From contig JBKAGE010000040.1 in NCBI GenBank assembly GCA_046290225.1, positions 1-64,000 of the forward strand: DNA of 64,000 nt, given 5' to 3'. The notes beneath the pieces are model-generated. The model did not search any database. It saw only the letters and a list, made by a program, of their open reading frames with translations, and had not been told where the DNA came from. Both the position numbers and the translations under genes were made by a program. Source of the DNA: Bradymonadia bacterium. GTDB taxonomy: Bacteria; Myxococcota_A; Bradymonadia; UBA7976; UBA1532. How positions within the stretch are numbered: the stretch's first letter is position 1; every line of letters starts with the position of its first letter. Below are positions 21,790-46,490 of this stretch, piece by piece.

Positions 21790-23142
21790 ATGATGCGCTG
21801 CCTTCTGATCATCCTGTGTATGTTGCCATGCGCCTGCGGCGCCGCCCCTCGAGGCGACACACCGATGCCATGGCGATACACAGTACGCGTCGACAATGAG
21901 CACAACCGAATGCACGTACGCGCCTGCCTGCCCGGTGCAAAGGGCGCGCTGCTCCCTGGCGTAGAGGCAGGGTACGATCTCGTGCGCCCGCGACGGGCGA
22001 GGCCCATGCAGCTCGACCAGGGTGTGTGTGTGCGATACCAGCTCGACCTGGAAGCCCTCACCGCAGCCTCTGAGCCCTCGGGGCGCAATGCCGCCCTCGC
22101 CCCAGACCGGCTGCTCTGGCCCGGGCTCTGGCTCTGGCGCCCTGAAGAGGAGGCCCGACCACCTGAAGGCTCGACGGTGACATTCGACTTGCCTCCTGGC
22201 ACGTCGATCTCCACCGCCTGGCCTGCTGCAGGCGACGACACATTCCGCCTGCAGTCTTCAGCCCTGAGCTTTCGCAGCCGCATGGCGCTGGGCCCCTTGA
22301 AGCGCCGGATGAAGCTCGACGTTGCCGGAGGTACCATCGACGCGGTGTTCCTCGGTGGCGCCCCTACGGGACCCTTGGACGCGTGGCGAGACTGGATCAC
22401 CCGCGCGGCGCGGGGCACCGCGGCGCTGTACGGCGATCTGCCAGCACCTCATGTTCAGCTGCTGGTGGTGCTCGACGAAGGCTCGACGGTGCACTTCGGC
22501 ATGACCCAGAGAGGCGGAGGGCCCGGCATCGTGATGTTCGTGGGCCGCCATGTCCGCCCGTCGACGCTGAAGCGAGACTGGACCCTCACCCACGAGCTCT
22601 TTCACCTGGGTATGCCCCAAATCGCCCAGAACGACCTCTGGCTCTCCGAGGGGGTGACCACCTACAGCACGTTCGTCGCCATGGCCAGAGCGGGCACGCT
22701 CGACGCCGAGTCCGCCTGGGCCGAGCTCGCCGACGGCTTTCGCCGAGGGCAGCGGCAGGCTCGTGGGCTCAGCTTGCAGCATGAGGGCGAGCGTCTCCGG
22801 CGCACGGGCCGATATGCCCGGGTGTACTGGGGCGGCGCACTGTGGGCGCTGCGGGCCGATCTGGTGCTGAGGGCAAAGGGCAGCAGCCTGCCTCACCAGC
22901 TCATCAAGTGGCGTCAGCACCAACGACAGGACGATCGAGTGTGGTCTGCCCGCGCCCTCCTCGACACCAGCGCCCACTCAGCGGCGCTGCAGAGGCTGGT
23001 GCTTGAGCACGTCGACGCCTCGACTCAGCCAGGATCTGCAGGTCTGCTCGAGACTTTGGGTGTAGACGTAAACGATGCCGGAGAAGTGACGCTCACCCCT
23101 GCCTCAGGGGCGAAGATGCGTCGGGACATCATCCCAGAATGA
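21790..23142 (+). CDS. HEXXH metallopeptidase (M61/M1-like), probable lipoprotein
   Basis: THELFHLG followed by WLSEGVTTY; later YWGGALW; signal peptide with Cys. Confidence 0.8.
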   Translation: MMRCLLIILCMLPCACGAAPRGDTPMPWRYTVRVDNEHNRMHVRACLPGAKGALLPGVEAGYDLVRPRRARPMQLDQGVCVRYQLDLEALTAASEPSGRNAALAPDRLLWPGLWLWRPEEEARPPEGSTVTFDLPPGTSISTAWPAAGDDTFRLQSSALSFRSRMALGPLKRRMKLDVAGGTIDAVFLGGAPTGPLDAWRDWITRAARGTAALYGDLPAPHVQLLVVLDEGSTVHFGMTQRGGGPGIVMFVGRHVRPSTLKRDWTLTHELFHLGMPQIAQNDLWLSEGVTTYSTFVAMARAGTLDAESAWAELADGFRRGQRQARGLSLQHEGERLRRTGRYARVYWGGALWALRADLVLRAKGSSLPHQLIKWRQHQRQDDRVWSARALLDTSAHSAALQRLVLEHVDASTQPGSAGLLETLGVDVNDAGEVTLTPASGAKMRRDIIPE

Positions 23143-23845
23143 GGCCCAACTGGCTGGCCTCCTCAAGCACGGCGGTGACCTGCTCGAGGGGCTGCCCGCT
23201 GATTTGAGCCGCCGCTTCGGCTGAGAGACCCTCGTGTACCACCTTGAGGGCGAAGAGCAGCGGATCTCGCCCCCGGTGCCAGTGGGCCACACGACGGGGC
23301 AAAGACTGGAACGCCAGGACCAGGGTCTCGTCAGGCTCTGGCGACTCGGGCCGCTCGCCTGCCTGAAGCGCGCCGGCGAGGCTGGCGACGTCGTACGGGA
23401 ACGACAAGAGAGCCAGCGTGGGGTTGATGATGGGCCCGTCGAGGGTGTCGGGGTCCGGCAGAGGCGTGCCGTCGATGCTCACCTCGTAGAGCGCCCACTC
23501 GAACTCTGCCAGAGCCACGTGGGCCGGGGTCAGCCCCAAGCGGTCCTCGGCGCTCAGTGTGCTCACCAGAGCAGGCAGATGGACAGCGGCCTCGGGCAAT
23601 GTGGGATCTTTGGGTGGGTGCGCCAAGTAGTACAGCTCGAAGAGCTCGGACCAGCCATCCTCGCCCAACCAGGTGGCGAGCAAGGGAAACTCTGCCGAGA
23701 GCGCGGTGTGCACGTGCCGCCGCACGAAGCGTCGATAGATGGCCAGCCGAGCAGGGTGCACGCCGAGCAGCTCAGCCGCTTCGTCCACCGAGCGCTGCCC
23801 TCGGAGCACGTCGTGCATCACAGATTGGATCGATGACAGGCTCAT
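23129..23845 (-). CDS. DUF2063 (HvfC/BufC-like) MNIO partner protein
   Basis: RLAIYRRFVRRHVHTALSAEFP...LGEDGW...YYLAHPP; LAEFEWALYEV; NPTLALLSFPYDV; ATGA overlap with DUF692 gene. Confidence 0.88.
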   Translation of the reverse strand: MSLSSIQSVMHDVLRGQRSVDEAAELLGVHPARLAIYRRFVRRHVHTALSAEFPLLATWLGEDGWSELFELYYLAHPPKDPTLPEAAVHLPALVSTLSAEDRLGLTPAHVALAEFEWALYEVSIDGTPLPDPDTLDGPIINPTLALLSFPYDVASLAGALQAGERPESPEPDETLVLAFQSLPRRVAHWHRGRDPLLFALKVVHEGLSAEAAAQISGQPLEQVTAVLEEASQLGLILG

Positions 23846-24759
23846 CGGGCCTCCATCATCGGCAGAGCCTGACTGGTGGCCGCCTCACCCACAGCGCGGA
23901 TCTGACCCAGCTCTTCGAGCAAACGCTCGACGCCGGGGATCTCGGTGTCCCATTCGAGCAAGGTGGTCACAGGGCCGGTCTTCGACAGCACGTGTGCATA
24001 GAGCGCGAAGACCTCCTGCACGATGGGCTCCCCGTGGGTGTCGATGATGACGTCGCCGAGATCAGAATGTCCGGCCATGTGAATCTGCACCACCCGCTCC
24101 AGGGGCAGCGCGTCGATGAAGGCGTACGGATCCTGATTGTGGTTCCGGGCGTTGACGTAGACGTTGTTCACGTCGAGCAACAGCCCGCAGTCCGCCCGCT
24201 CGAGCATCTCGGCGATGAAGGCCCCTTCAGTGAGCTCGCTGGCGCCGTACTCGATGTAATACGAGGGGTTCTCCAGCAGAAAAGGGATCTCTCGACCCAG
24301 CGCCTCGGAGGCGGGCAGTGCCACCTCGCGCTTCACCTGCTCGATGCGCGTCACCACGTGATCGAGGGCCTCTCGGGTGAGAGGCACCGGGAGCAGCTCG
24401 TGATACTCCACGCCAAAGGCAGAGCTGAAACACAGGTGATCTGAGAACCAGTGTGCGCCGGAGCGCTCGACGAGGGCCCGGAGACGGCGCAGATAGTCCG
24501 TACTCAGGGGGCTCTCGCTGCCGATGCTCAGCGCAGTGCCATGGAGCACCAGGGGGTGGGCCCGGGCGCGCTCCAGAATCAGAGCCGGCTCGCCGCCGGG
24601 GGCCATGAAGTTCTCCGAGAGCAGCTCGAAGAAGCCCACCTCGTGGGCCAGGGGGGTGAGCCCCCCTCGGTCCGCACCGAAGAAATCCTGCCAGTGCTCT
24701 CTACGCAACCCGACCCCATAACCGAGATCGGGTACCTCGAACCGAGGGGATGTATACAT
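23842..24759 (-). CDS. DUF692 multinuclear non-heme iron oxidative enzyme (MNIO; HvfB/BufB/MbnB family)
   Basis: GVGLRREH, ELLSENF, LHGTALSIG, SDHLCF, LLENPSYY, LLDVNNVYVN, IHMAGH, IDTHG, LLEWD. Confidence 0.95.
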   Translation of the reverse strand: MYTSPRFEVPDLGYGVGLRREHWQDFFGADRGGLTPLAHEVGFFELLSENFMAPGGEPALILERARAHPLVLHGTALSIGSESPLSTDYLRRLRALVERSGAHWFSDHLCFSSAFGVEYHELLPVPLTREALDHVVTRIEQVKREVALPASEALGREIPFLLENPSYYIEYGASELTEGAFIAEMLERADCGLLLDVNNVYVNARNHNQDPYAFIDALPLERVVQIHMAGHSDLGDVIIDTHGEPIVQEVFALYAHVLSKTGPVTTLLEWDTEIPGVERLLEELGQIRAVGEAATSQALPMMEAR

Positions 24760-24768
24760 GCTCTACTC

Positions 24769-25164
24769 TCAGCTCTTGTCGCCGCTGCAGCCCTTCTCAC
24801 CACTGCAGCTCTTCTCACCAGAGGCCTTCTTGTGGCCAGAGCAGCCCTTTTCACCGCTGCAGCTCTTCTCACCGGCCGCTTCTTTGTGACCGCTGCAGCC
24901 CTTTTCGCCGCTGCAGCTCTTCTCGCCCGTGGCGGCCTTCTCGCCGTTGCAGCCCTTCTCACCGCTGCAACTCTTCTCACCCTTGGCCATGTCTTTGTGG
25001 CCCGAGCAGCCTTTGTCACCGCTGCAGCCCTTCTCGGCCTGCATCTGATTCTCCGCCTGGGGCGCAGCACCACCACAGGCGGTGAGACCACCGAGGGCGA
25101 GACCGCCGAGGGCGAGGCTCATGGTGACGGTACCGATCGACAGCTTACGGCTCTGAGTGCTCAT
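24769..25164 (-). CDS. MNIO RiPP precursor: lipoprotein signal plus ten (E/D)K(G/S)C(S/N)G repeats (131 aa)
   Basis: GGAGG SD before ATG 25164; hydrophobic signal ending LTAC; Cys/Lys/Gly repeats; ends 9 bp before DUF692 gene. Confidence 0.88.
   Translation of the reverse strand: MSTQSRKLSIGTVTMSLALGGLALGGLTACGGAAPQAENQMQAEKGCSGDKGCSGHKDMAKGEKSCSGEKGCNGEKAATGEKSCSGEKGCSGHKEAAGEKSCSGEKGCSGHKKASGEKSCSGEKGCSGDKS
24772..25040 (-). repeat. Coding about 54-bp tandem repeat (5 units, GEKSCSGEKGCSGHKxAx)
   Basis: Recurrent ccgctgcagc(t/c)cttctc units on the + strand. Confidence 0.9.
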
Positions 25165-25265
25165 ATGAAATGCCTCCAACATTAGATGTGTGTATTTGTA
25201 GACTGATCGACTGTCCGACTCGCCAATCAGTTGAAGCAAGAGCTTCATCAGGCTTCGCAGGGGTT

Positions 25266-25291
25266 TACGACACCTGTTGGAGGGGGTTACA
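25266..25291 (-). promoter_or_regulatory. Candidate ECF sigma promoter TGTAAC-N16-CGTA of MNIO operon
   Basis: Minus strand TGTAAC(25291-25286) cccctccaacaggtgt CGTA(25269-25266), preceded by an A-tract; about 100 nt upstream of precursor ATG. Confidence 0.6.
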
Positions 25292-25337
25292 GGATTTTTT
25301 AATTTGATGATTCCACTGCTGTGCAATGGCGGAATTG

Positions 25338-28300
25338 TTAGAAGCAGCCGAGCGTGCCCGAAACCGAGAACAGCGTCGATGGGTCGGGCGGGCTCGACGT
25401 CCAGACCAGGACGAAGCGCTCACCGTCCCAGCTGACCGCCGTGTGACGGATGTCTCCGGCGGCTGCGCCCGCTGCGATGGGCGCCGTCAGGGGGCTGCCG
25501 TCTCGAGCGAAGCCCTGCACCGTGGGGGCGTAGCGGCCCCCACCGAAATCTTCTGCTGAAGCCAGCACCAACATGCTCTGATCCAGCGCCCAGGCCGCCG
25601 AGATTTGCTCCAAGCCCCAGCTGAACGACGAGCGTGTCAGCAACACGTCTTCATTGAGACGCTCACCGCGTGTGTCCACCAGGGTCAGATAGACCAGGTA
25701 GGCGCCGGCCTCCCGATTGGCGTCGGCCCAGACGATGGCGAAGGCCTCGCCAGTCCAGAAGATGTCGATCACCGACGACGGGAAGAAGCTGTCGGTGAGC
25801 GCGATGTCGTCGATGAGGCGCTCCCCACTGGGATCGAGCAGCGTGAAGAACACCTCCAGGGTCTGGCGACGGCTGTCCTGCCATGCCACACCATACGCCT
25901 GCTCGTTGAAGGCCATCTTGGGCCCTGTCGATCTGCCGAAGCTGTCGGTCACCTGCTGGGCCCCTTCGAACTCACCACCAAAGTCGGTGTTGCCATAGAA
26001 GAGGTGACTGCCGACCTCGGGATCAGACTGGCTCCAGACCGCCCCTACCTGGCCATGCCAGCCCAAGTCGGCCCCCTGGCTGTCGAAGACGCGGCCGATG
26101 ACGCTCTGATCGTTCACCGGCTGACCCCCGCGATCCACCTGATGCAGATACACCTGCCAGCCACGGACCAGAGCGTCGTGGGCAATGGCGAAGCCCTGCT
26201 CGGCCCAGACGATGGCCGGCGCAGCCACGGTGAAGAAGCCTTGGGAGATCACCACCTCTTCGGTGACGGGGCGCCCATCTCGGTCGAGGCCCATATAGCG
26301 CACCTCGCTGCCCTCCTGGTTCGGGTCGAGGGCCAACCAGGCCAGGCCGTGTATCTCGTCGCCCCACGCCAGCCGCGGAGATGTGTCGTAGTCGGCGTTC
26401 CGCGTCAGCTGGAAGCGCTCGCCCAGCTGGGGCCCGGCGTCTTCGTCGGTGTTGCCGTCGCAATCTTCGTCCACCCCGTCACAGAGCAGATCGGCGCGTG
26501 CTGGATCACCGGGGGTGCAGCTGTCGACGATCTGACCCCCGCGGCACTCCAGCACGCCGAAGCGCCCGCACTGCCCCACGCCACAGCGTGTACGCAGGCC
26601 TTGGTAGTCTTCGTCCACTTGACCATCGCAGTCGTCGTCCACGCCATTACACGTGACGTCGTTGGGGGCAGGCTCGCCATCTCGGCAGGTGTTCACCTCC
26701 TGGCCATTCTGGCAGACCACCGCGCCCTCATTGGCGCACGCGCCCTGACCACAGCCCACCAGTTGTGCACGGTAGTCTTCGTCGGCGGCGCCATCACAGT
26801 CGTCGTCGATCCCATCACAGGTGCGATCGGCTGCGCTCGGCTCACCAGGGGCGCAAGAATTCACCAGCGCGCCGTCTTGACAGACGATGCGGCCCACCGC
26901 GGCGCAGGCCCCCACACCACATTGCACCACCTCGGGGACGAAGCCCTCGTCGATGTTGCCATCACAATCATCATCCACCCCATCACAGTCGTCGTCGGGC
27001 TGAGGCTGGCCTGGCGTGCAGCTGTCCTGCCGGCTGCCGTTGACGCAGATACGCTGCCCCACAGATTCACACTGGCCGACGCCACACTGCGTGCCCACAG
27101 CGGTGTAGGCCTCGTCGATGGCGCCATCGCAATCGTCATCCAGGCCATCACAGCTCTCGTCGTCACCGACGGGGGCCCCTGGCGTGCAGTCCTCCGTTTC
27201 CTGGCCATCGACACAGCGCAACGCCCCTGTGGCCGCGCACACGCCCACACCACACCGCAGCTCACGGGGGCGATACCGCTCGTCTACCTGGCCATCACAG
27301 TCGCTGTCGCGACCATCACACAGGGCATCGTCCTCGACGGGTTCACCGGCTGTACAGGTATCGCGGACCTCACCGTTGACGCACACCTCGGCGCCAGCGG
27401 CAGCGCACACGCCCACACCACAGGTGGTCCGAGCACCCACGAAGTCTTCATCGACGCGGCCGTCACAGTCATCGTCCACCCCATCACAGGTGGCATCGTC
27501 AGGGGCTGGCTCGTCCGCCCGGCACGTGTCGATGACCTCACCGGCGCGACATACAGTGATACCTGTGGCGGCGCAGGCTCCATCTCCGCAGGCCACCTGC
27601 CGGCTCACGTAGCCTTCGTCGACGAGTCCATCACAATCCGCGTCGACCCCATCACACAGGCGGTCGGGCCCCTCTGGTGCGCCAGGATCGCACCGCTCGA
27701 CCAGCTGCCCACCGTCACAGAGGCGCAGACCCGTAGCGGCGCAGACACCCAGCCCGCAGTTGATCTCGATCTCGGCCACATCTTCGTCGGCGCGGCCGTC
27801 GCAATCTTCGTCCAGCCCGTCACAGCGATCGTCAGATGGGGCCGGCCGGCCAGGCGTACACAGCTCTCGCTCGACACCGGCGACACAGGTCGTCACCCCT
27901 CGAGCGACGCAGATCCCCTCACCGCAGGTCACCGCTCGACGCACGTAGCCCTCGTCCACGAGGCCATCGCAGTCATCGTCTACACCATCACAATTCGTGT
28001 CGGCGTCAGGCGCCCCAGGCGTACAGCCATCGACGAGGCGCCCGCCCACGCACACGGCTTGCCCTTCTGCGGCACACGCTCCGGTGCCACACGCGGTGAC
28101 CGCCGGGCGGTGATCTTCGTCGGCGGCGCCATCACAATCTTCGTCCACCCCATCGCAGCGGGCGTCGATGGCGAGGGGCTCTCCGGCGACGCAGTTGTCG
28201 ACGGTCTGGCCATTGCGGCAGAACAGCACCCCTTGTGCACGGCACATGCCCACCCCACAGATGGTGGCCGTGATCTCGAAGTCCTCGTCGACGCGGCCAT

Positions 28301-35059: not shown

Positions 35060-35461
35060 TCAGCTGTCTCCCAGTTTGCCCACCAGCGCACACAGACGAT
35101 CGAGATCGAGCGGCTTTTGAAGCACGGCGATGACGCCGAGAGCGCGCGCCTCAGTGAGCTGCTGGTCTTGTGAATAAGCGGTGATGAGCACCACAGGCAC
35201 TTTGGGGTGTTGGGTGCGGATCTGTTTGATCAGGTGCACCCCGCTCATGCCGGGCATGCGCATGTCGGTGACCACCATCTGCGGCTCGAACTGCTCGAGC
35301 AGCGCCAGAGCCTCCTGGCCATTGGCGGCGAGGCACGCCAGGACCCCCTCGTCTTCGAGGACCTCTTTGAGGTTCTCGGCCAGATCGAGGTTGTCGTCGA
35401 CGATGAGGACCGCAGGGCCCTCGAGATCAGCTCGGCGCATGGTCGGGCTCATGCTCATCAT
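35060..35461 (-). CDS. Single-domain response regulator
   Basis: LIVDDN, VTDMRMPG, ITAY, QKPLD; ATGA overlap with upstream kinase. Confidence 0.9.
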   Translation of the reverse strand: MMSMSPTMRRADLEGPAVLIVDDNLDLAENLKEVLEDEGVLACLAANGQEALALLEQFEPQMVVTDMRMPGMSGVHLIKQIRTQHPKVPVVLITAYSQDQQLTEARALGVIAVLQKPLDLDRLCALVGKLGDS

Positions 35462-36630
35462 GCCCCCTCTACAGGCTGGTGAGGCAGCCACAGCGACACC
35501 TTGGCGCCGCCTTCGGGGGCATTCTCGGCGGTGGCCTTGCCGTGGTGGCGCTCGCACACGCGCTGGACCAGGGCCAGCCCCAGTCCAACCCCGGCGCTCC
35601 GCGTGGTGACCAGCGGCTCGAAGACCCGCCTCAGGGTCATCTTCGGGAACCCGGGGCCGTTGTCCGCCACCCAGATGTGCACCTGACCATCGACGATCTC
35701 GGCGCCCACCCGAATCTGGGGGCTCTCCTCTCGGGGGTGCTCGGGATGGGTCAAGATGGCCACAGCGTTGTCGATGAGGTTCACCAGGGCCCGTACGACG
35801 AGGCGGCCCTCCACCCAGGCCGTGAGCGCCCCATCGATGTCGACTTGCACCTGCACCTGCTCCGGGATCCGCGTGCCCTCGATGGCGTCGTCGACGAGCG
35901 GGCGCACGGCGGTGTGAGCGAACTTCGGACGTCGATCACGGGCCATCTCGAGCAGGTCGGAGATGATGTTGCTCGAGAGCTTCACCTGCGCAGCGATCTT
36001 GTCGAGGTGACGATCCGCCTTGGGTGTGTCCTTGACCCGCCTGCGCAACAGGTACAGCGAGGTCTCGATCACCCCGAGGGGGTTGCGCAATTCGTGGGCG
36101 ATGCTGGCCGCGAGTTGGCCGATGGCCACGAGGCGCGTCTGGCGGCTCAGGCGTTGATCAGAGTCTTCCCGATACGTGTGCAGCATGATGGCCAGCTCGA
36201 GATCGAACAGGCGATCGACGGCGTCGCCTGCTGCGCGACGTGTGGGGAAGTCGTCTGGGTAGATCTCCTGGATCAGGTGACGCACGTCACGGCGCATGAC
36301 GTTCACCGCGGTGAACATGTAGACCTGCGGCAGGCCAATGTGCACGTGTACGCGGCCAATGCGTGCCCGACGTTCGTAAAACGCCTCGTCATGAGGGCCT
36401 TCGAGGCCGCTGCGCAACCATGCGCGCAGCGTGCCTTTGAGACGCTCGATTTGTGCGTGGCCACCAGAGATCACCTTCAAGGCGTCGGGGTGCGCCTCGA
36501 TGCAGGCATAGAAGTGATCGACGACGGCGGGAATGTGGGGTTCGATGTGGACGAGCAGATCGCTCAACACCTTGCTGTCGGTGTCAGAGAAGCCGATGTA
36601 GTGCTTGGCTTCGTCGAAGAGTGCGCCCAA
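35458..36630 (-). CDS. Globin-coupled histidine kinase (AfGcHK-like O2 sensor)
   Basis: Protoglobin-type domain HFY...RIGRVHVHIGLPQVYM...LELAIMLHTYRED, then AHELRNPLGVIETSLY, DNGPG, GVGLGL. Confidence 0.92.
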   Translation of the reverse strand: MGALFDEAKHYIGFSDTDSKVLSDLLVHIEPHIPAVVDHFYACIEAHPDALKVISGGHAQIERLKGTLRAWLRSGLEGPHDEAFYERRARIGRVHVHIGLPQVYMFTAVNVMRRDVRHLIQEIYPDDFPTRRAAGDAVDRLFDLELAIMLHTYREDSDQRLSRQTRLVAIGQLAASIAHELRNPLGVIETSLYLLRRRVKDTPKADRHLDKIAAQVKLSSNIISDLLEMARDRRPKFAHTAVRPLVDDAIEGTRIPEQVQVQVDIDGALTAWVEGRLVVRALVNLIDNAVAILTHPEHPREESPQIRVGAEIVDGQVHIWVADNGPGFPKMTLRRVFEPLVTTRSAGVGLGLALVQRVCERHHGKATAENAPEGGAKVSLWLPHQPVEGA

Positions 36631-37608: not shown

Positions 37609-38253
37609 TTATTTGATGGCCTGCACGATGTACTGACCGCTGCGGCGCTCGCCGCCTCCTCGGGTGAGGGTCTGCACGTCGATCATCACCTGAGAGAACG
37701 GCGCGAAAACCTCTCGCACCTGCTCTTCGGTGAGATAGCTGGTGAAGAAGCCCGAGTTGCCCTCTTTGATGATCATCGAGAAGAAGCCGCCACCGGGCTT
37801 GAGCACCCGGTGCACCTCTTTCATGGTGAGGGCGATGTCTTCCACGGAGTTGTTCTGGATCGCGCTCTTGTCGATGGCGAAGTCGAACTGACCATCTTCG
37901 AAGGGCAATGCCTTGAAGTGCCCACAGACGGCCTGCTCGGTGATGTCGGCTTTGATGTGATCGACAGCGGTCTGGGAGAAGTCGATTCCCCAGGCGTCGA
38001 AGCCCCGCTCTTTGAGGAACTTGAGGTTGTTCCCCCACCCACAACCGAGGTCGACGCAGCTCAGCTTCCGGCCATCGACCACGGGTTGCCGGTAGTTGCG
38101 CATCACGTACCCGATGACCAGCTCGGTGGGGTACTGGTTCTTGTGGGCCCCGGTCTCGCTGGCGTAGGTGGTCTCCCACTCCTGCTGGTTGTGGGGGCGG
38201 GCATCGGTGACGGTGACGGTGCCCTGGGGGCCCGATGGCTCGGTGTACAGCAT
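37609..38253 (-). CDS. Class I SAM-dependent methyltransferase
   Basis: VDLGCGWG, GIDFS, LPFEDGQFD, RVLKPGG; SD GGAG before ATG 38253. Confidence 0.9.
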   Translation of the reverse strand: MLYTEPSGPQGTVTVTDARPHNQQEWETTYASETGAHKNQYPTELVIGYVMRNYRQPVVDGRKLSCVDLGCGWGNNLKFLKERGFDAWGIDFSQTAVDHIKADITEQAVCGHFKALPFEDGQFDFAIDKSAIQNNSVEDIALTMKEVHRVLKPGGGFFSMIIKEGNSGFFTSYLTEEQVREVFAPFSQVMIDVQTLTRGGGERRSGQYIVQAIK

Positions 38254-38257
38254 GTCT

Positions 38258-39625
38258 TCAGCGCTCCTGTTCGAGGCGTGCGTCGGGGGTTTTGGGTTCG
38301 AGAAGGTTCGGGCTGAGCAGTTCACACCGAATGAGGGCATCGCGCTCGGCCACGAGATCCATGACGGTGATGCCAAGACCGTGGGCGATGGTGACGAGAT
38401 CGTGCTCGCCATCGCCATAGCCCAACAAAGCCTTCACGGTGTTCACCTGTTGAGTGGCCAGGGGGCCAGAAAGCGTCGGATAAAGCCCCCGACGGCCGAG
38501 CTGGGGCTCACACCAGGGGTACAGATTGCGATGCACCCCGTTCTCTTCGATCGTGTCGACGAGATCGAGCACGGCACAGACCGTCTCAGCCATGCGATCG
38601 AGATCGATGATGTCGAGGGTGTCGAGGCTGGTGTGATACTCGGCGTAATTGCCGCCGATGGCCCGGCCGAGGAAGCCCATGGGCAGGTTGATGCCGATGC
38701 TGCTGTACTGCCGCATGTCGGCGCCGCCGAGGGGGTCCCAGGGCAGGATCACCCGGTCGCGCTCGGTGATCTCGAGCAGCTCGGGCATGATCCGATTGGT
38801 GAGGCTCTGCGGGTCACGCCCGAGCTTGTAGTGCAGCGGGGCGTCGATGCCCACCATCGACAGCACGAGCCCACCGACGACTTTCTGCTTCAACGCCTCG
38901 TGATGCCGACTCAAGAACGCGATGCTGCCGATGGTCTCCGGGGCGTAGAGGAACCGCACCCCGTACTTGCGCCGAGGCTGCGCGGCGAGGGCCTGATAGA
39001 GCGCCGTCAGGGCCACAGGGCCCGAGAGCTCGTTGTTGGCCATCGACGGGTGGCACAGGTAGCTCGTGAAGAGCAGCTCCTCGTTTGTCTCTCCGGGCAG
39101 GAAGGCCTCTGCGAGGGTGAGATGCCCATCTTCGAGGGTGCTGTCGATCACCACCCGATATTGAGGCTCGGTCAGCTCGGTGAGGCGCCGATGCTCCAGG
39201 CAGAACCCCCACCGCTCCTTGTAGTAGCTGGTACGGTAGGGGATGGCGTCAGGCTGGTTGGGCAACGTGTAGATGTGCTTCATCAGCGTGGGCAGATCGA
39301 CGATCTCGTCCACGGGCACGCTGTATCCGAGCACGTGCAGATTGTTCTGCTGAAAGTCGATGACCCGACGGCCGTCCAGCGTGGCCACATAGGCATCTCT
39401 GATCTGCCACTCCCGCGGGATCTCCCAGTCGAAGCAGGGCGTGCCTGTGGGCAGCTCGGTCCGCTTGAGATCGACATAGCGTTCGATGATGTCGAGGCTC
39501 TGGCGCACACCGGGGCCGGTGATGCTCCTGCAGATGGGCCAGAGCTGCTCGAAGAGGCCCCGCATCTCCTCGGGGCCCATGAACTGGTGGTGGCGATGGG
39601 TGGTGCCGGTGGGTGTGACCTTCAT
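38258..39625 (-). CDS. DUF4910 family protein (M28-like, DUF2172 and winged HTH)
   Basis: PICRSITGPGVR, NNLHVLGYS, PDAIPYRTSYY, YLCHPSMANNELSGP, PETIGSI, YHTSLD, EPQLGRRGLY. Confidence 0.9.
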   Translation of the reverse strand: MKVTPTGTTHRHHQFMGPEEMRGLFEQLWPICRSITGPGVRQSLDIIERYVDLKRTELPTGTPCFDWEIPREWQIRDAYVATLDGRRVIDFQQNNLHVLGYSVPVDEIVDLPTLMKHIYTLPNQPDAIPYRTSYYKERWGFCLEHRRLTELTEPQYRVVIDSTLEDGHLTLAEAFLPGETNEELLFTSYLCHPSMANNELSGPVALTALYQALAAQPRRKYGVRFLYAPETIGSIAFLSRHHEALKQKVVGGLVLSMVGIDAPLHYKLGRDPQSLTNRIMPELLEITERDRVILPWDPLGGADMRQYSSIGINLPMGFLGRAIGGNYAEYHTSLDTLDIIDLDRMAETVCAVLDLVDTIEENGVHRNLYPWCEPQLGRRGLYPTLSGPLATQQVNTVKALLGYGDGEHDLVTIAHGLGITVMDLVAERDALIRCELLSPNLLEPKTPDARLEQER

Positions 39626-39852
39626 GCGGGGGCGCTCGCCTCGTCGTCGACCAGGGCAGTGATGGCCCTGAAGGTGGAATACTTCAGCATGCTCTCTTCA
39701 GTGAATGGCACCTGATGGGCGGCGTTGAGCCAAGCCATGATCTCTACGTGGGCCTGGCTGTCCCACCTCGGGTGATTGAGCATGCTGTCTTCGGCGCTCA
39801 GGCTCTCGGCGGCCACGCCCAGGATCTGGGCGACGGTCTCTCGTGCGCTCAC
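39622..39852 (-). CDS. Acyl/aminoacyl carrier protein
   Basis: 76 aa, WDS phosphopantetheine motif (PRWDSQAH), translationally coupled on both sides. Confidence 0.85.
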   Translation of the reverse strand: MSARETVAQILGVAAESLSAEDSMLNHPRWDSQAHVEIMAWLNAAHQVPFTEESMLKYSTFRAITALVDDEASAPA

Positions 39853-41309
39853 GAAGCGGCCTCCGCCTCGGCGATGGCGCTCAGCTGCCCGTCGTCGATC
39901 TTGTCATTGGCGTTGCGGGGCAGGGCCTCGATGGCCTCGATGCGTGCGGGCATGGCGTACTCTGGCAACGCCACGCGCAGCTGCTGACGCAAATCGTCCT
40001 CCGGGGCAGGCAGGGTGCCCTCGATGAAGCTCACGATCTGCCCGTCGCTGAGCACGCTGCGTACGGCGAGACAGCCGGCGGCTCGAAGGGCTGCGTCCAC
40101 CTCGCCGAGCTCCAGGCGGTGGCCCTTCACCTTCACTTGCCGATCGATGCGGTGCTGGTAGTAGATCGCGCCGTTGACGCGCTTCACCCAATCGCCGGTG
40201 TGATACCCGTCGGCCTGGAACGCCTGAGCGGTCCGCTCAACGTCTTCCCAATACCCTCTGGCCAGCTGCGGGCCGCTGATCACGAGCTCGCCTTCATCCG
40301 CGTCGGGGCCCCCGGTGATGCTCAACGACATGCCCGGCGTGGGCTCGCCGATGGCCATCGACGTGCGGGCGTGCTTCTTCCAGGTCTTGCGGGTCAGGCT
40401 CTGAGTGCTGCAGGAGATGGTGGCCTCAGTGGGGCCATAGGCGTTGATGACATCGAGATCGGGCCGGCACTCGAAGAGGGCCTTCACCTGCTCAGGTAGT
40501 AGTGCTTCGCCACAGAAATACATGGCCTGCAGGCTGCTCAGGTGCGTCTTGGTGGCGTGGTTGGCCTTGCGGATGAGATCGACCACCGAGGGCACGGACT
40601 CCCAGACGGTGATGCCCAGCGACTGGATCGCCAGGGCCGGCGCCATGCGGTCGAGCATGCCGGTGAGGGGCACCAGCGCCGCCCCGCTGCAGAGGCTGGC
40701 GTAGATGTCGAGCACGCTCATGTCGAAGCCGAGGTTGGGGTACTGGCTCATCCGGGCCCCAGGGCCCAGCGGCAGGCGGTTGATGGCCCACTGGATGAAA
40801 CCGTTGAGGCCCTCGCGGCCCACCATCACCCCCTTGGGCACTCCCGTGGAGCCAGAGGTGAACATGACATAGGCGAGATCGTGGGGGGCCTTGGGCGCGC
40901 CGAGGGGTACGCCCTGGGGATCGTCGGGGAACACCATGACCCCATCGGGCGGGCCCCCCATCTCTTCCAGGGCCCGGGCGCCGAGATCACCGCCGGTGAT
41001 GATGGCGTCGGGCTTGAACCGATCCATGATGAGGCGCCGCCGGGCGGTGGGGCCTTCGAGATCGAGGGGGGCGTAGTACCCACCCACCATGAGGGTGGCC
41101 AGCATGGCGCCATAGGCCCCAGGGCCCTTCGGCGCGCAGATGAGCACCTTGGGATGCTCACCAGCCCAGTGCAGCGCGCCGGCGATGGAGCGCACCCGCT
41201 TCGCCAACGCCCCGTAGGTCTCGTTGGGGCTGTTCCGCATGATGACCGCCACGTCGTTGGGACGCGCCTCGGCCACGGTGAAGAAACGCTCGACCAATTC
41301 GAAACTCAT
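39849..41309 (-). CDS. Stand-alone amino acid adenylation enzyme (DltA-like)
   Basis: YVMFTSGSTGVPKGV, FDMSV, FCGE, NAYGPTEAT, YHTGD, RIDRQVKVKGHRLELGE, LPRNANDKID. Confidence 0.9.
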   Translation of the reverse strand: MSFELVERFFTVAEARPNDVAVIMRNSPNETYGALAKRVRSIAGALHWAGEHPKVLICAPKGPGAYGAMLATLMVGGYYAPLDLEGPTARRRLIMDRFKPDAIITGGDLGARALEEMGGPPDGVMVFPDDPQGVPLGAPKAPHDLAYVMFTSGSTGVPKGVMVGREGLNGFIQWAINRLPLGPGARMSQYPNLGFDMSVLDIYASLCSGAALVPLTGMLDRMAPALAIQSLGITVWESVPSVVDLIRKANHATKTHLSSLQAMYFCGEALLPEQVKALFECRPDLDVINAYGPTEATISCSTQSLTRKTWKKHARTSMAIGEPTPGMSLSITGGPDADEGELVISGPQLARGYWEDVERTAQAFQADGYHTGDWVKRVNGAIYYQHRIDRQVKVKGHRLELGEVDAALRAAGCLAVRSVLSDGQIVSFIEGTLPAPEDDLRQQLRVALPEYAMPARIEAIEALPRNANDKIDDGQLSAIAEAEAAS

Positions 41310-42199
41310 GGATGCACCTTGTTGTCCGAGACGATGGGGTTGTCCGAGACGATGGGGTTGTCCGAGACGATGGGGTTGTCCGAGACGATGGGGTTGTCCG
41401 GGGCGATGGGAGTGACCAGGGCGTAGGGATCTTCTGTGAGCATTCGGAGGGCACAGTCGTGCAGGTCGGCGATGGCCACGGCGTAGCTCTGGCCATAGGG
41501 CGCAGCGACCTCGGTGAGCACCCCCGCTCGCCGCAGGGGCTCGGCGATGACGTCGAAGTTGGCCCGCCACTGTCTGCCCTGCGGATCATCCGCCCGGGCG
41601 TAGTACTTCAGGGTGACCTGCCGAGGCTCGCCGCTGTGATCCACCACAGTACGGGGCAGATCGAGCCACTGCCGGTACGGCACCTGTGCCAGGGCCTCCA
41701 TGTGATGCAGGTAGGTGCAGCCCCGGCGAAAGCCCACTCCCAACAACACCACGTGCATCTGTGCTGCATAGAGCCGCTCGAAGTCAGAGTCGGGCCCCAG
41801 TGAAACAGTGGGCGGCGTCGGCGTCATCAGCGCCTCTGCCCGAGGGCCCACGGCGACGTGGTTGTGTACGGGGCTCATGCTGCGCACGGCACTAGGCAGA
41901 GTGCGCACATACTCACTCAGAGCGCCGACACCTGTGCTCGGGCTGTGCACGACGTCGTAGGGCGCCTCGTGGGTGTTGAAGGTGTAGCTGGGCACCACCA
42001 CGGTGGCCTCGGGGCCCACCACGGCTCTCAGGGCCTGGTACACCATCTCGGGCCCGCTCTGGCCCTCTGAAACGCTCAGTCGCCCAAAGGCCATCAGGCT
42101 GCTGTGCACCACCACGTCGAGGCCTGCCCGCAGACCCAATGCCCGCAGATGTGCTTCCATCTGCGCGACGTCGGTGGTGTGTATGCTCGGTCTGCTCAT
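41306..42199 (-). CDS. AAC(3)/YokD family N-acyltransferase
   Basis: VVVHSSL, VVPSYTF, GALSE, SPVHN, LLGV, TYLHHMEALAQVPYR. Confidence 0.88.
   Translation of the reverse strand: MSRPSIHTTDVAQMEAHLRALGLRAGLDVVVHSSLMAFGRLSVSEGQSGPEMVYQALRAVVGPEATVVVPSYTFNTHEAPYDVVHSPSTGVGALSEYVRTLPSAVRSMSPVHNHVAVGPRAEALMTPTPPTVSLGPDSDFERLYAAQMHVVLLGVGFRRGCTYLHHMEALAQVPYRQWLDLPRTVVDHSGEPRQVTLKYYARADDPQGRQWRANFDVIAEPLRRAGVLTEVAAPYGQSYAVAIADLHDCALRMLTEDPYALVTPIAPDNPIVSDNPIVSDNPIVSDNPIVSDNKVHP
41321..41410. repeat. 18-bp tandem repeat GTTGTCCGAGACGATGGG (4 perfect plus 1 variant)
   Basis: Read directly; encodes (DNPIVS)n at the AAC(3) C-terminus. Confidence 0.95.
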
Positions 42200-42389
42200 C
42201 AGCGACACTTTCAGATTATGGGGCGGGCGTACCCCTGTGGGAACGTCCATCCGGTGGGTGAAGCTTGAGGGCATTTGCACTTCGAGGCCAGATCGCGCGC
42301 TGATCTCAAGCTCGCAGAGGTCAGCAGCCGATGGGCACACTCGGACCGCAATCCACCAGCGTCGAATCAGAGCCTCACAGGAGATCGCC

Positions 42390-43457
42390 GTGGCCGCCAT
42401 GGAAGCCCCAGCCCCCGCACCGCAGTTCTCGGTCAACGACATCCGCCCGGTGGAGCTGGAAGCCCGGAAGAAGATCTTGTCGAGACAAGATCGAGAGGCC
42501 CTCTGGGCGATGCGGCACACCTTCATCGACGTGCCCTGCCCGGCCTGCGGCAGCACCGAGCACTCTCTGGCCTTTCGCAAAGACGAGTTCCCCTACGTGC
42601 GCTGCCACGGCTGCGACACCCACTACATCACCCCCCGCCCGCCGGCAGACCTGCTCGCCCGCTGGTACGCCGAGAGCGAGAACAGCCGCTTCTGGAACAC
42701 CCACGTCTACCCCATGAGCGAGCCCGCCCGTCGCGCCCGCATCTTTGGCCCTCGGGTCACCCGCCTGCTGGAGATCTTCGAGCGCCAGGGGGTACACCCA
42801 GGCTGTCTCGTAGAGGTGGGCGGCGGCTTCGGCACCTTCGTCGACGAGGCCCACCGACGTGGGGTCTTCGATCGCGTGATCGCCATCGAGCCGGTGCCCG
42901 AGCTCGCGGAGAACATTCGCCGCCGCGGAGTGGAGGTCATCGAGGCCGGAGTGGAAGCCGTGGTGGACGAGTCGGGCGTGCGCCCAGATTACATCGACGC
43001 GCTGCCTGAGGGCCTCGTGGACATGGTGGCGAGCTTCGAGGTCATCGAGCACCTCTATGACCCGGCGAGCTTCATCCAGGCGTGCGGGCGCTTACTGCGC
43101 CCTGGCGGTCTGCTCACCCTCACCTGCCCCAACGCCGCCGGCTTCGACATGGCCACTCTCGGCGGCAAATCGGGCAGCTTCAATTGCTACCACCTGAACT
43201 GTTTCACCACCGACGCCCTGATTCACCTAGTGGAGCGCCTGGGCTTTGAGGTGGTGGAGGTGATGACCCCCGGCGCTCTGGACGCCGAGCTGGTACGGCA
43301 ACAGGCTCTGAGCGGCGACATCGACTTGTCAGGGCAGCCCTTCTTGCAGAAGGTGCTCGTGGACGACTGGGACACGCTCGGCGGCGCATTTCAGGACTTC
43401 CTGGCGCAGAACGGGATGTCGAGCCACCTGTGGCTGGTGGCCCGCCGGCCAGGGTGA
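42390..43457 (+). CDS. Class I SAM methyltransferase with N-terminal Zn ribbon
   Basis: CPAC...CHGC, VEVGGGFG, IEP, FEVIEHL, LRPGG, PN; SD GGAG before GTG 42390. Confidence 0.88.
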   Translation: MAAMEAPAPAPQFSVNDIRPVELEARKKILSRQDREALWAMRHTFIDVPCPACGSTEHSLAFRKDEFPYVRCHGCDTHYITPRPPADLLARWYAESENSRFWNTHVYPMSEPARRARIFGPRVTRLLEIFERQGVHPGCLVEVGGGFGTFVDEAHRRGVFDRVIAIEPVPELAENIRRRGVEVIEAGVEAVVDESGVRPDYIDALPEGLVDMVASFEVIEHLYDPASFIQACGRLLRPGGLLTLTCPNAAGFDMATLGGKSGSFNCYHLNCFTTDALIHLVERLGFEVVEVMTPGALDAELVRQQALSGDIDLSGQPFLQKVLVDDWDTLGGAFQDFLAQNGMSSHLWLVARRPG

Positions 43458-43638: not shown

Positions 43639-45435
43639 GTGTCGAAGCATCGTACAGGCAAGTCTTCTCGACTCGGCCGTCTGCTGGCCTGGCGCTATCT
43701 CGTAGCGCTGTCTCTCATATTTTGCCTGTCTTGTTGCGGACTCTTCTACCTGCTCCAACACCTCAATCACGCATCGAGCGACGGACTCGTCATCAACCTG
43801 GCGGGTCAGCAGCGCATGCTCAACCAGCGGGTCGCGCTACAGACAACACGGCTACAGAGCGCCGAGTCCGACGAAGAGCGCGCTCTGGTCAAAACATCGC
43901 TGGCGCAAGACATTGCTCGGATGCGTGCAGCGCACAAGGCGCTGAAATACAACGAATCTGATGCCATGGCGGCATTGCTGATCAAACAATCCCAAACCAG
44001 CCATACGCCTCATCAACTCGAGGTCGATCTACATGCCTATACAGCCACTGCGGAGCGGGCGTTGGCAGGCGAGCCCATCGATCTCGGCGCACTCTTGAGC
44101 CAGAGCGCAGCTCTGCAACAACAGCTGCACTCAGCAGTGGCATCGAGAGAGCGGGCAGCCAAAGACAAGATCACCTACCTGACCCAAGTTGAGTGGTTGC
44201 TGTGGGGCTTGACCTGCCTGGTGCTGCTCGTGGAGTTGTGGCTCATCTTTCTGCCCAGCCTGCGCTCTGTCGAATCCACGCTGGCCACCGAAGAAGCCAT
44301 GCGAAAAGAGGCTGAGCTCGCACATCAGATCCAAGAGCGTTTCATCACGACGATGAGCCATGAGATCCGCACGCCGCTCAACGCCATCATCGGCTGCGCT
44401 CAGCTGATCCAGGAGCATGCGCTGCCCCACACAGTGACTGAACACATGCACGACCTGGACGGCGCCGCCCAGCACCTCCTCTCCCTCGTGGACAACATCC
44501 TCGACGCCCACAAACTGTCTGCGGGCTTGCTCGATCTGTCGCTGAACCCGACCCCTCTCGCTGAGTTGACACACGAGGTTCTGGCCATTTGCAGGCCCCT
44601 GGCGACACACGCTGGTCTCGAATTGTGCGTAGAGTCTGATCTACCAGGATCACATGTCGTCGACGTAGACGCCCATCGTGTACGGCAAATCTTGCTGAAC
44701 CTGATCGGCAACGCGATCAAGTTCACGCCGAGCGGCTCGATTACGCTGGGCATTCAGCGTGAGGCAGAGGGTGTGTCCTTCAGCGTGTCCGACACTGGCC
44801 CGGGGATCCCCGAGGCCCAACAACACAAGCTCTTCGAGCGCTTTCAGCAACTCTCCACTCACATCCACGGCACGGGCCTCGGGCTCTCGATCAGCAGAGA
44901 GCTGGCCACCCTGATGCAAGGCCGCCTGGAGTTGACCGGCAGCAGCGCGAAGGGATCGACCTTCACCCTCTGGCTGCCACTGACGCCTGTCCCTGCCCAA
45001 TCGAAGCTCTCCGCCGAGCCCACACCTCTGGAGGCACTTCTCGATGGCGCCCCTCTGGAGATCCTCGTCGCCGAGGACAACGCCATCAACCAGCGTATCA
45101 TCCAGCGGGCTCTGGAGGGCATTGGATGCCGAGTCACCGTCAAGGCAGACGGTCAACGCGCCCTCGATGCAGCCCGGGAGAATCGCTTCGACTTGATCGT
45201 CGTGGACAACCAGATGCCAATCCTGAACGGTGAGCAGACCATTCGTGCTCTGCGCGAGCTCCAAAACCAGCCCACCGATCCGGAGGTGCCCATCATCGTG
45301 CTGACAGCAGACGCTACGGCGACGACCAAAAACCGCACGTTGGCAGCGGGCGCGACGGCCTTCATGACCAAGCCCGTCTCCATCGCCACGCTTCGGGCTC
45401 AGGTACGGGCGCTGTGCGTCGCCGAGGCCGCCTGA
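43639..45435 (+). CDS. Hybrid sensor kinase with NarX/PilJ-like periplasmic domain
   Basis: [45 protein letters not shown]-terminal REC (AEDN, VDNQMP, KP). Confidence 0.9.
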
Positions 45436-46490
45436 ATCTGCTCGATGAGCTGTGTCGCTTCACCCTGATGGTGGGCCAGCATGACCTCGCTGATCTGGCT
45501 GGCGTGCCGACACGACATGGCCTTTTGCACCACGGAGAGCGCCGTGGGCAAATCCGCCGGCTCACCACGTAGATAGAGCGCCTTCCCCAAACTGAAGAGC
45601 AGGTCGGGGTGTTCGGGGGAGATCTCCAGGGTGCGCTGTAACAGCGCGATGGCCTGAGGCAGTCGACCACGATCAGCGCCGAAGGCCTTGAGCAGTGTGT
45701 AGACTGCCTCGACCACGGGGCCCTTTCTACGATCGAGCAACTGCTCCACCGAAGGACTCAACACCGTGATGGCTTCAGTGAAGCGCTGGAGCTTCACGTA
45801 CTCGCGGCCCAAGTAGAAACCCAACACAGGATCCCCAGGGTGCTCGGCCAGATCGAGCGTGAGCAGCTTCAACGCCCGCTCGCTCTTGCGGCGATCCCGG
45901 TACACCTGCGGATCATAACCAGTGTGTACGATCTGCAACCCGTCGAGGCGGATCGTGCGCCCACCCTCAATGCTCGGGCGCTCGTGGATACGGCCGGTGT
46001 ATTTCAACGTGGGATGTCGGGCAAAGAGCCGCGGGGCATGGAAACTGGAGATCGCCTGACCATCGCGCTGTTGATTGAGGATGCGCAGCAAGTAAGTGTC
46101 GGTGGTCTTGCGCTGAGGTTGTTGCAGATACCCCCTCAGCTGTGAAGGGTTGGGCACCTCGAGACATTCGTCGGCGTCGAGCACGAGGATCCAGCGGCCC
46201 GTGCAATGCTTCAGCGCTCGATTGCGCGCCGCAGAAAAGTCATCGGACCAGGGCTGACGTACCACCTGGGCGCCGAAGCCCTCGGCGATCTGCACCGTGT
46301 CGTCGGTGCTGCCCGTGTCGACGACGACGATCTCGTCCACCACCCCCTGCACACTTTGCAATGCAGCAGGCAGCGTCTCCGCTTCGTCGCGGACGATCAT
46401 CGCCAGAGATACGAGTGGACCCATGGCAGCGCCGGCACGTGTGTGGGGGGAGCGTCGCGCGCTCTTGCGCGGTTTGATGCGTCTGACCAT
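45399..46490 (-). CDS. GT2 glycosyltransferase with TPR repeats
   Basis: [40 protein letters not shown]-like C-terminus; start 46490 or 46424. Confidence 0.9.

Follow-up and report, generated by a model that had tools for sequence, protein, structure and literature searches.

What does an enzyme with the fold of an aminoglycoside 3-N-acetyltransferase (AAC(3)) do in an operon with an amino-acid adenylase and an acyl carrier protein (ACP)? This question is raised by a stretch of 64,000 nucleotides (the window) from a Bradymonadia bacterium (GenBank assembly GCA_046290225.1, contig JBKAGE010000040.1, positions 1 to 64,000), which carries five coupled genes for an AAC(3)-fold N-acyltransferase of the Antibiotic_NAT family, an adenylase, an ACP, a DUF4910 protein and a methyltransferase, MT1. 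We consider it reasonably likely that these genes form an N-acyl exchange cassette, in which the DUF4910 protein de-N-acetylates, the AAC(3)-fold enzyme transfers an ACP-bound amino acid and MT1 methylates. The acceptor is probably a surface amino sugar, a sialic-acid-like nonulosonate whose other genes are located elsewhere in the genome.

The following steps can be envisioned. The host encodes two phosphopantetheinyl transferases, one of which would prime Ser32 of the ACP. The adenylase would then activate a small amino acid of the Gly, D-Ala or D-Ser class and load it onto the carrier. The DUF4910 protein, as a Zn amidohydrolase, would strip the N-acetyl group from a nucleotide-linked sugar, and the AAC(3) fold, employing His165 and Glu168, would take over the aminoacyl group from its thioester on the ACP and attach it to the amine thus exposed, in replacement of a condensation domain. 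Subsequently, MT1 would methylate the new substituent, and a glycosyltransferase encoded elsewhere would attach the sugar to flagellin, another surface protein or lipopolysaccharide.

Both the gene neighbourhood and the idea of DUF4910 deacylation are already in print (Hitchen et al., 2010, PMC3068675; Das et al., 2014, PMC4000134). The accessible part of the latter paper lists an aminosugar N-acetyltransferase, an ACP and a methylase as DUF4910 neighbours and proposes transacylation or deacylation, while its supplement contains a 64-member cluster headed by AAC(3) proteins, ACPs and Campylobacter jejuni adenylation proteins. The neighbourhoods of CA_C2195 (PDB 3K9T) described there resemble the window, since DUF4910 stands with an AAC(3)-type enzyme, an ACP, a methylase and amino-acid adenylation proteins. 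However, those loci lie inside sugar operons, whereas the window cassette is detached from sugar genes, and in the accessible text AAC(3) is not proposed as an ACP-dependent transferase. In addition, the Clostridium acetobutylicum loader is a HAD-phosphatase fusion (labelled FkbH-like here), whereas that of the window is an amino-acid adenylase. In C. jejuni, the DUF4910 protein Cj1295 was required for 5-N-dimethylglyceroyl-pseudaminic acid (Pse), i.e., for replacing the 5-N-acetyl group of Pse, an N-acetyltransferase (Cj1296/7) is encoded next to it, and C5 de-N-acetylation was hypothesised (Hitchen et al., 2010, as far as its text is accessible). A survey from 2026 (PMC13130089, accessible in part) finds that cj1295 correlates with pse genes. 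Thus the link to Campylobacter flagellin glycosylation, drawn in an earlier reading of the window from the sequence alone (the sequence-only reading), stands on these genetics and on the ACP and adenylation neighbours in the supplement. The systems differ nevertheless: the C. jejuni product is 2,3-di-O-methylglyceroyl, while that of the window is predicted to be aminoacyl, and C. jejuni possesses a canonical Pse pathway and Maf, neither of which was found above cut-off in our host. The window stands out by its loader, an amino-acid adenylase whose Glu/Tyr pocket is rare, by a methyltransferase coupled to the other genes and by the distance of the cassette from a non-canonical sugar pathway that is scattered over the genome.

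The Cj1295 genetics of 2010 raised the question of how pseudaminic- and legionaminic-type sugars acquire unusual N-acyl groups, and the five soluble proteins constitute a minimal reconstitution system for it. If the proposal holds, the Antibiotic_NAT fold gains a biosynthetic, ACP-dependent role and DUF4910 a reaction, while many environmental 'aac(3)' and 'dltA' annotations would denote neither resistance nor teichoic-acid genes. Similar gene sets recur in many genomes.

Which enzyme is likely to use the carrier protein

The AAC(3)-fold protein scores 138 bits against PF02522 (cut-off 25) and keeps the Thr...His-x-x-Glu catalytic motif of the family (PMC8956665, accessible in part) as T162-Y-L-H-H165-M-E168 (Thr162/His165/Glu168), together with the VHSS family motif. 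Arg176 and Arg202 are conserved in 40/41 and 34/41 aligned relatives. Its AlphaFold2 model (pLDDT 96.8) resembles in Foldseek the structures of AAC(3), BA2930, YokD and FrbF (TM 0.71-0.78, about 0.78 to AAC(3); E 1e-21 to 7LAP/6MB6) and thus a TTHA0583/YokD-like fold. The family members described in the accessible part of PMC8956665 use acetyl-CoA; the window enzyme, in contrast, is 25-30% identical to them, falls into a separate clade and is predicted to be an ACP-dependent aminoacyl transferase. A comparable arrangement is SbzI of altemicidin biosynthesis (PMC11685415, accessible in part), a CoA-type N-acyltransferase fold that takes a carrier-protein-tethered acyl group to a nucleotide acceptor, although SbzI has a GNAT fold and belongs to a natural-product pathway. 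In a search that left most subscription journals outside, no paper was found that assays an Antibiotic_NAT enzyme for ACP-dependent transfer.

The DUF4910 protein can be aligned with 3K9T along its entire length (E 5e-105) and belongs to the Cj1295/CA_C2195 family of M28-like Zn proteins. The Zn histidines His192 and His331 are kept, while the Asp195-Asn196 site reads Asn198-Glu199. The corresponding NNE was present in 80/82 sequences, a count biased toward the motif because the scan pattern contained CHPSMANN. The protein is predicted to be a de-N-acetylase.

Scanning genomes with DUF4910 gave 578 confirmed relatives, and the best 80 loci were analysed with profiles built from these same loci. 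AAC(3) was present in 26 and absent from 54 of them. ACP genes occurred in 17/26 loci with AAC(3) vs 4/54 without, and among loci of at least 19 kb in 13/19 vs 1/29. Loaders (adenylase, FkbH or FabH) showed the same tendency (16/26 vs 4/54), FkbH alone being confined to loci with AAC(3) (7/26 vs 0/54). Fisher p values were tiny, yet they are overstated because several loci are kin. Since 54 of the 80 loci lack AAC(3) and only four of these possess an ACP, DUF4910 fits a deacetylase rather than an ACP user. Natural fusions were found as well: ACP-AAC(3) in L049 and L020 (with a weak carrier match in L049), AAC(3)-DUF4910 in L067 and AAC(3)-HAD (FkbH-like) in L065. They support the earlier suggestion that AAC(3) works with the ACP. 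In another locus (L058:1-2688), the gene immediately upstream of DUF4910 encodes a fusion between a leucine-rich-repeat protein and an Antibiotic_NAT domain.

The closest syntenic copy comes from Colwellia (L001), a five-gene set AAC-adenylase-ACP-MT1-DUF4910 that was counted as the same order as in the window. Identities between both sets are 38-48% for AAC, adenylase, MT1 (45%, in the same position) and DUF4910, and 35% for the ACP. By inspection the Colwellia set is flanked by transposase-like open reading frames (ORFs). It lies within a flagellin-glycosylation island, with WbuX/HisH/HisF-like genes on one side and maf, fliD and flagellin (fliC) on the other, and its surroundings include a second DUF4910 gene with a formyltransferase. 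MT1 has matches in 6/80 DUF4910 loci; in the ESM Atlas it retrieved generic methyltransferase clusters only.

The two roles might be swapped with the purpose in glycan synthesis maintained. In that case DUF4910 would be the transacylase that draws on the ACP, and the AAC(3)-fold protein an acetyl-CoA enzyme giving an N-acetyl-aminoacyl substituent. N-acetyl-alanyl substituents do occur on nonulosonates. The retained catalytic and VHSS motifs fit such an enzyme, as do four loci in which AAC(3) and DUF4910 stand beside PepM without an ACP, and transacylation is among the reactions that the accessible part of Das et al. (2014) proposes for DUF4910. In the loci seen, however, the ACP is fused to AAC(3) and never to DUF4910. 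Three points lead us to assign the ACP to the AAC(3)-fold enzyme and to regard swapped roles as rather improbable. The ACP co-occurs with, and is fused to, AAC(3) and not DUF4910; FkbH is found with AAC(3) as well, and its glyceryl cargo offers no amine for acetylation; and the host genome has no condensation domain that could accept aminoacyl-ACP (no match to PF00668; the control profile matched in 4/14).

A putative sugar pathway at a distance

The window belongs to contig C40 of a genome of 8.6 Mb that is 99% complete, and candidate genes are scattered over it: NeuB with a SAF domain (E 5e-64) adjoins AsnB on contig C54; a DegT aminotransferase, a dehydratase and a cytidylyltransferase lie on C58; WbuX, a methyltransferase, a GNAT and an oxidoreductase on C70; another cytidylyltransferase on C38, and the host has CTP_transf_3-type genes. 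None of these sugar genes stands beside the cassette. Among the matches listed for the NeuB, SpsF, DegT, PseB and WbuX hidden Markov models (HMMs; best six per family), all were off the window contig, and the 12 ORFs flanking the cassette contain no nucleotide-sugar enzyme, as the sequence-only reading had noted. Its label 'stand-alone' is thus appropriate locally, while at the genome level partner sugar genes appear to be scattered elsewhere. Three islets of nonulosonate/amino-sugar genes (L092:6615-9635, L091:8674-11876 and L093:9111-13122), with two to four such genes each and on different contigs, were observed in the host. Each carries a tailoring enzyme (AsnB, WbuX, methyltransferase, GNAT), and PseB, PseG and NeuC were not recognised.

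This separation recurs in relatives. A close AAC profile matched 12/401 genomes of the phylum at E 1e-40, namely the host and 11 genomes of one family (f6). In the six f6 stretches fetched, adenylase, AAC(3) and ACP genes were always adjacent, DUF4910 lay beside them in 5/6, and no sugar-pathway gene was found within 10-20 kb. NeuB was convincing elsewhere in 4/5 f6 genomes tested. A detached cassette is consequently a habit of this class. Together with the counts in DUF4910 loci and the Colwellia set, these stretches bear out the previous claim that ACP, adenylase, AAC(3) and DUF4910 are conserved together. Full-length DUF4910 was detected in 9/61 searched genomes including the host, with two more weak partial matches. 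NeuB occurred in all nine genomes with full-length DUF4910 vs 14/52 others, and by genus in 4/4 vs 11/34 (p 0.018), with four of the nine NeuB matches divergent. Within the 80 DUF4910 loci, 48 contain NeuB, SpsF or NeuA. A locus of the cultured Aequorivita capsosiphonis DSM 23843 (L076) combines adenylase, ACP, AAC(3), DUF4910 and NeuB.

The detachment may also be read differently: the cassette might make a diffusible small molecule. A methylated amino acid would be turned into an amide without a nonribosomal peptide synthetase, and the AAC(3)-fold protein would serve as ligase or as self-resistance acetylase. This would fit a cassette that is orphaned among sensor kinases and that class relatives likewise hold apart from sugar genes, and FrbF is a biosynthetic, non-resistance member of the same family (PMC8956665, accessible in part). 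Against it stand the position of the Colwellia copy within a flagellin-glycan island, the linkage of DUF4910 to glycan loci and the co-occurrence with NeuB at genome level, while no exporter is coupled to the cassette. We consider this scenario unlikely.

Several observations nevertheless weigh against N-acyl exchange on a nonulosonate. The cassette has no adjoining sugar-pathway genes, and NeuB is not commoner beside AAC(3) (10/26) than in the other DUF4910 loci (26/54). The kin loci are not independent, and the HMMs used for the counts were made from the very loci counted. In the four PepM loci, all from Ignavibacteria, the ACP is missing; thus not every AAC(3)-fold enzyme encoded next to DUF4910 is supplied by an ACP. 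One genome (G144) carries the cassette core with only a weak NeuB match. Within the host, PseB and PseG stay below cut-off, and NeuB falls below the cut-offs for both NeuB and PseI. The only PF02350 gene appears to be of the non-hydrolysing kind, with what we take to be a WecB-type start motif, and no gene for the hydrolase step was recognised. Maf was not found, although the PF20157 control matched nowhere. The nonulosonate route of the host is therefore incomplete or non-canonical, and PseC (298 vs 424) and PseI (208 vs 340) miss the thresholds of the canonical Pse pathway as well. Of the eight host genes with a flagellin domain (C75:228-243 kb, C78:536-541 kb and C64:26 kb), seven are long ORFs (470-500 aa) and one is FlgL-like; no glycosylation genes were seen around them when the ORFs were inspected, with no family scan.

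Two variants of the gene set were noted besides. In L028, L030, L038 and L050, AAC(3) and DUF4910 adjoin PepM and phosphonopyruvate-decarboxylase-like genes; these loci possibly represent an FrbF-like phosphonoglycan variant. Two same-family genomes (G017 and G002; L112 and L113) show a larger arrangement, in which DUF4910 is divergent from the genes for an ELFV dehydrogenase, a ligase fusion of 1200 aa, a cyclase, a fusion of ACP and methyltransferase, AAC(3) and, in L113, a formyltransferase.

Adenylase pocket and ancestry of the AAC(3) fold

The adenylase is related to known families without reaching their thresholds: it scores 293 bits against TIGR01733 (cut-off 317) and 244 and 240 bits against two DltA models (equivalog cut-offs 476 and 560). 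The amino-binding Asp in FDMSV (Asp196) and the Cys in FCGE (Cys266), both reported previously, are indeed present, as is Lys470. Read by motif at what are presumably the PheA-numbered positions, the pocket code is DMLEYCAISK. It occurs in 3/120 of the best 120 among 527 adenylase matches, i.e., in the window protein and its 73% and 62% relatives, while the commonest code is DLLNTCTVSK (62/120); the pocket Asp is found in 120/120 and the Cys in 114/120 of these matches. The pocket region is nearest to PDB 4OXI, a glycine-activating AlmE-type enzyme (DLHLFCLIA-), with DltA next (DLMTLCTVA-); the f6 adenylases (DLHFLCLIAK) are near 4OXI, too. In DltA, Cys268 is enantioselecting and shuts out L-Ala (PMC8972799, accessible in part). 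The sequence-only reading had considered a possible D-amino acid for the window. This is weakened because the FCGE Cys is also found in glycine-activating 4OXI, while one DltA, 3L8C, has Asp instead. What holds is the small substrate: Cys266 points to either Gly or a D-amino acid without singling out the latter, and the Glu/Tyr pair suggests that the side chain is small and polar or basic.

The ACP shows a WDS motif and a net charge of -7, and its Ser32 is invariant in 16/16 aligned ACPs. A metagenome scan with the adenylase sequence retrieved no relative, and one with the adenylase alignment mostly generic adenylases (AAC(3) in 4/80, DUF4910 in 1/80 loci). The closest plasmid adenylases (40%; Mesorhizobium, four records, two examined) and that of L120 are accompanied by ACP and GNAT in polysaccharide loci or stand alone, in either case without AAC(3) or DUF4910; thus this clade of adenylases also occurs outside the module. 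On the Mesorhizobium plasmids, adenylase, ACP and GNAT form a trio inside a polysaccharide export locus (L200:15001-17397, L201:11995-14397).

A stand-alone adenylase with a carrier for a small amino acid, and with pocket Asp and Cys, is likewise found in AlmEFG of Vibrio and DltABCD of Gram-positive bacteria. One might hence think of Gly or D-Ala being placed on lipid A or another envelope polymer and altering the surface charge, the more so as the pocket is closest to AlmE and DltA and AlmE-AlmF-AlmG represents an adenylase-carrier-transferase trio (PMC12930378, accessible in part). The transferases of those systems, however, are LpxL- or MBOAT-type, whereas that of the window is AAC(3)-fold. 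The cassette lacks an LpxL-type gene, DltD (PF04914) has no match in the host genome, and none of the four host MBOAT genes (on C4, C36 and C82) is on the window contig. The earlier finding of neither a condensation domain nor DltB/DltD at the locus is thereby extended, and an envelope-charging function, which would also leave DUF4910 and MT1 unexplained, appears quite unlikely.

For the cassette as an N-acyl exchange system, a further-reaching version is tentative and on the whole doubtful. The AAC(3) fold would here represent a carrier-protein-dependent amide ligase and form with DUF4910 a mobile plug-in that swaps N-acetyl for a methylated small amino acid on a nonulosonate, acting, in this bacterial class, in trans with the scattered non-canonical pathway, and the Glu/Tyr pocket would select an amino acid that is new for DltA/AlmE-like enzymes.

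In a quick tree, the AAC(3)-fold protein belongs to a clade of 13 rows (SH-aLRT 98) that also holds Colwellia L001 and L121, while the f6 cassettes, AAC(3)-IVa, AAC(3)-IIe and an AAC(3)-IV-like paralogue of the host are placed apart. This position suggests a possible separate acquisition. A true aminoglycoside-resistance aac(3) beside unrelated genes by chance is very improbable: the fold is shared and identity to plasmid-borne AAC(3)-IVa/-II amounts to 30%, but the protein scores far below the NCBIfam resistance cut-offs (AAC_3, 98.6 vs 270 bits; AAC(3)-IV, 87.5 vs 420), its gene is overlap-coupled to the adenylase, and its clade is distinct from the resistance enzymes in a host with that separate paralogue. 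The paralogue, on C50 (L095:7206-7976), scores 298 bits against the cut-off of 420 and clusters with AAC(3)-IVa, whose C-terminal Cys motif it retains.

Locus layout and neighbouring genes

All six genes listed in Table 1 were found intact by translation and Pfam search, as described before: five coupled genes on the minus strand and a divergent Zn-ribbon methyltransferase, MT2. The minus-strand junctions are 4-nt stop/start overlaps (ATGA, GTGA, ATGA) followed by a 4-nt gap before MT1, and 199 nt separate MT2 from the AAC(3) start.

Table 1. Cassette genes and an associated repeat, in window coordinates
Feature	Coordinates	Strand	Details
Antibiotic_NAT (AAC(3))-fold N-acyltransferase	42199-41306	-	297 aa; PF02522 E 3e-40
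AMP-binding adenylase	41309-39849	-	486 aa; PF00501 E 2e-59
Acyl carrier protein (ACP), PP-binding	39852-39622	-	76 aa; PF00550 E 8e-6, above cut-off
DUF4910+DUF2172+HTH_47 protein	39625-38258	-	455 aa; E 7e-77
MT1, class I S-adenosylmethionine methyltransferase, final operon gene	38253-37609	-	214 aa; Methyltransf_11
MT2, divergent Zn-ribbon class I methyltransferase	42399-43457	+	352 aa; Methyltransf_23; start inferred
Tandem repeat, 18 bp x5, in 3' end of AAC(3) gene	41321-41410	-	TRF

MT2 has the Zn-ribbon motifs CPAC/CHGC. The sequence-only reading had counted it as part of the module. We left it out of the core because it occurs in 0/80 DUF4910 loci and its best non-self match, in a large family, reaches 52%, compared with 69-75% for homologues of AAC(3) and the adenylase. 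The contigs listed for these AAC(3) and adenylase homologues agree in length (8980 and 3290), an indirect sign that the two genes go together.

The repeat (period 18, 5.0 copies, 97% matches) is in-frame and encodes a DNPIVS-type C-terminal tail of the AAC(3)-fold protein immediately before the adenylase start. It was not found in close AAC(3) homologues; a 69% homologue (P0002) ends with another short repeat tail.

GC content at third codon positions is 0.82-0.87 in the cassette, the same as in neighbouring host genes, and thus gives no sign of recent transfer. A promoter scan returned one site (0.9 expected), and PADLOC a generic methyltransferase match only. The cassette is flanked by sensor kinases, response regulators, an S1 protein and a GT2-TPR gene. 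The latter (45399-46490, minus strand) lies 2 kb from the cassette, has two host paralogues (C47 and C34; 37-38%) and is a candidate protein glycosyltransferase with a putative tie to the cassette. Directly downstream of the cassette, a protoglobin-coupled histidine kinase (35458-36630, minus strand) is located within a run of response regulators. Farther away, the window contains an MbnB/TglH/ChrH-family enzyme for ribosomally synthesized and post-translationally modified peptides with a DUF2063 partner (23129-24762, minus strand); a short upstream ORF (24769-25419) may encode the precursor.

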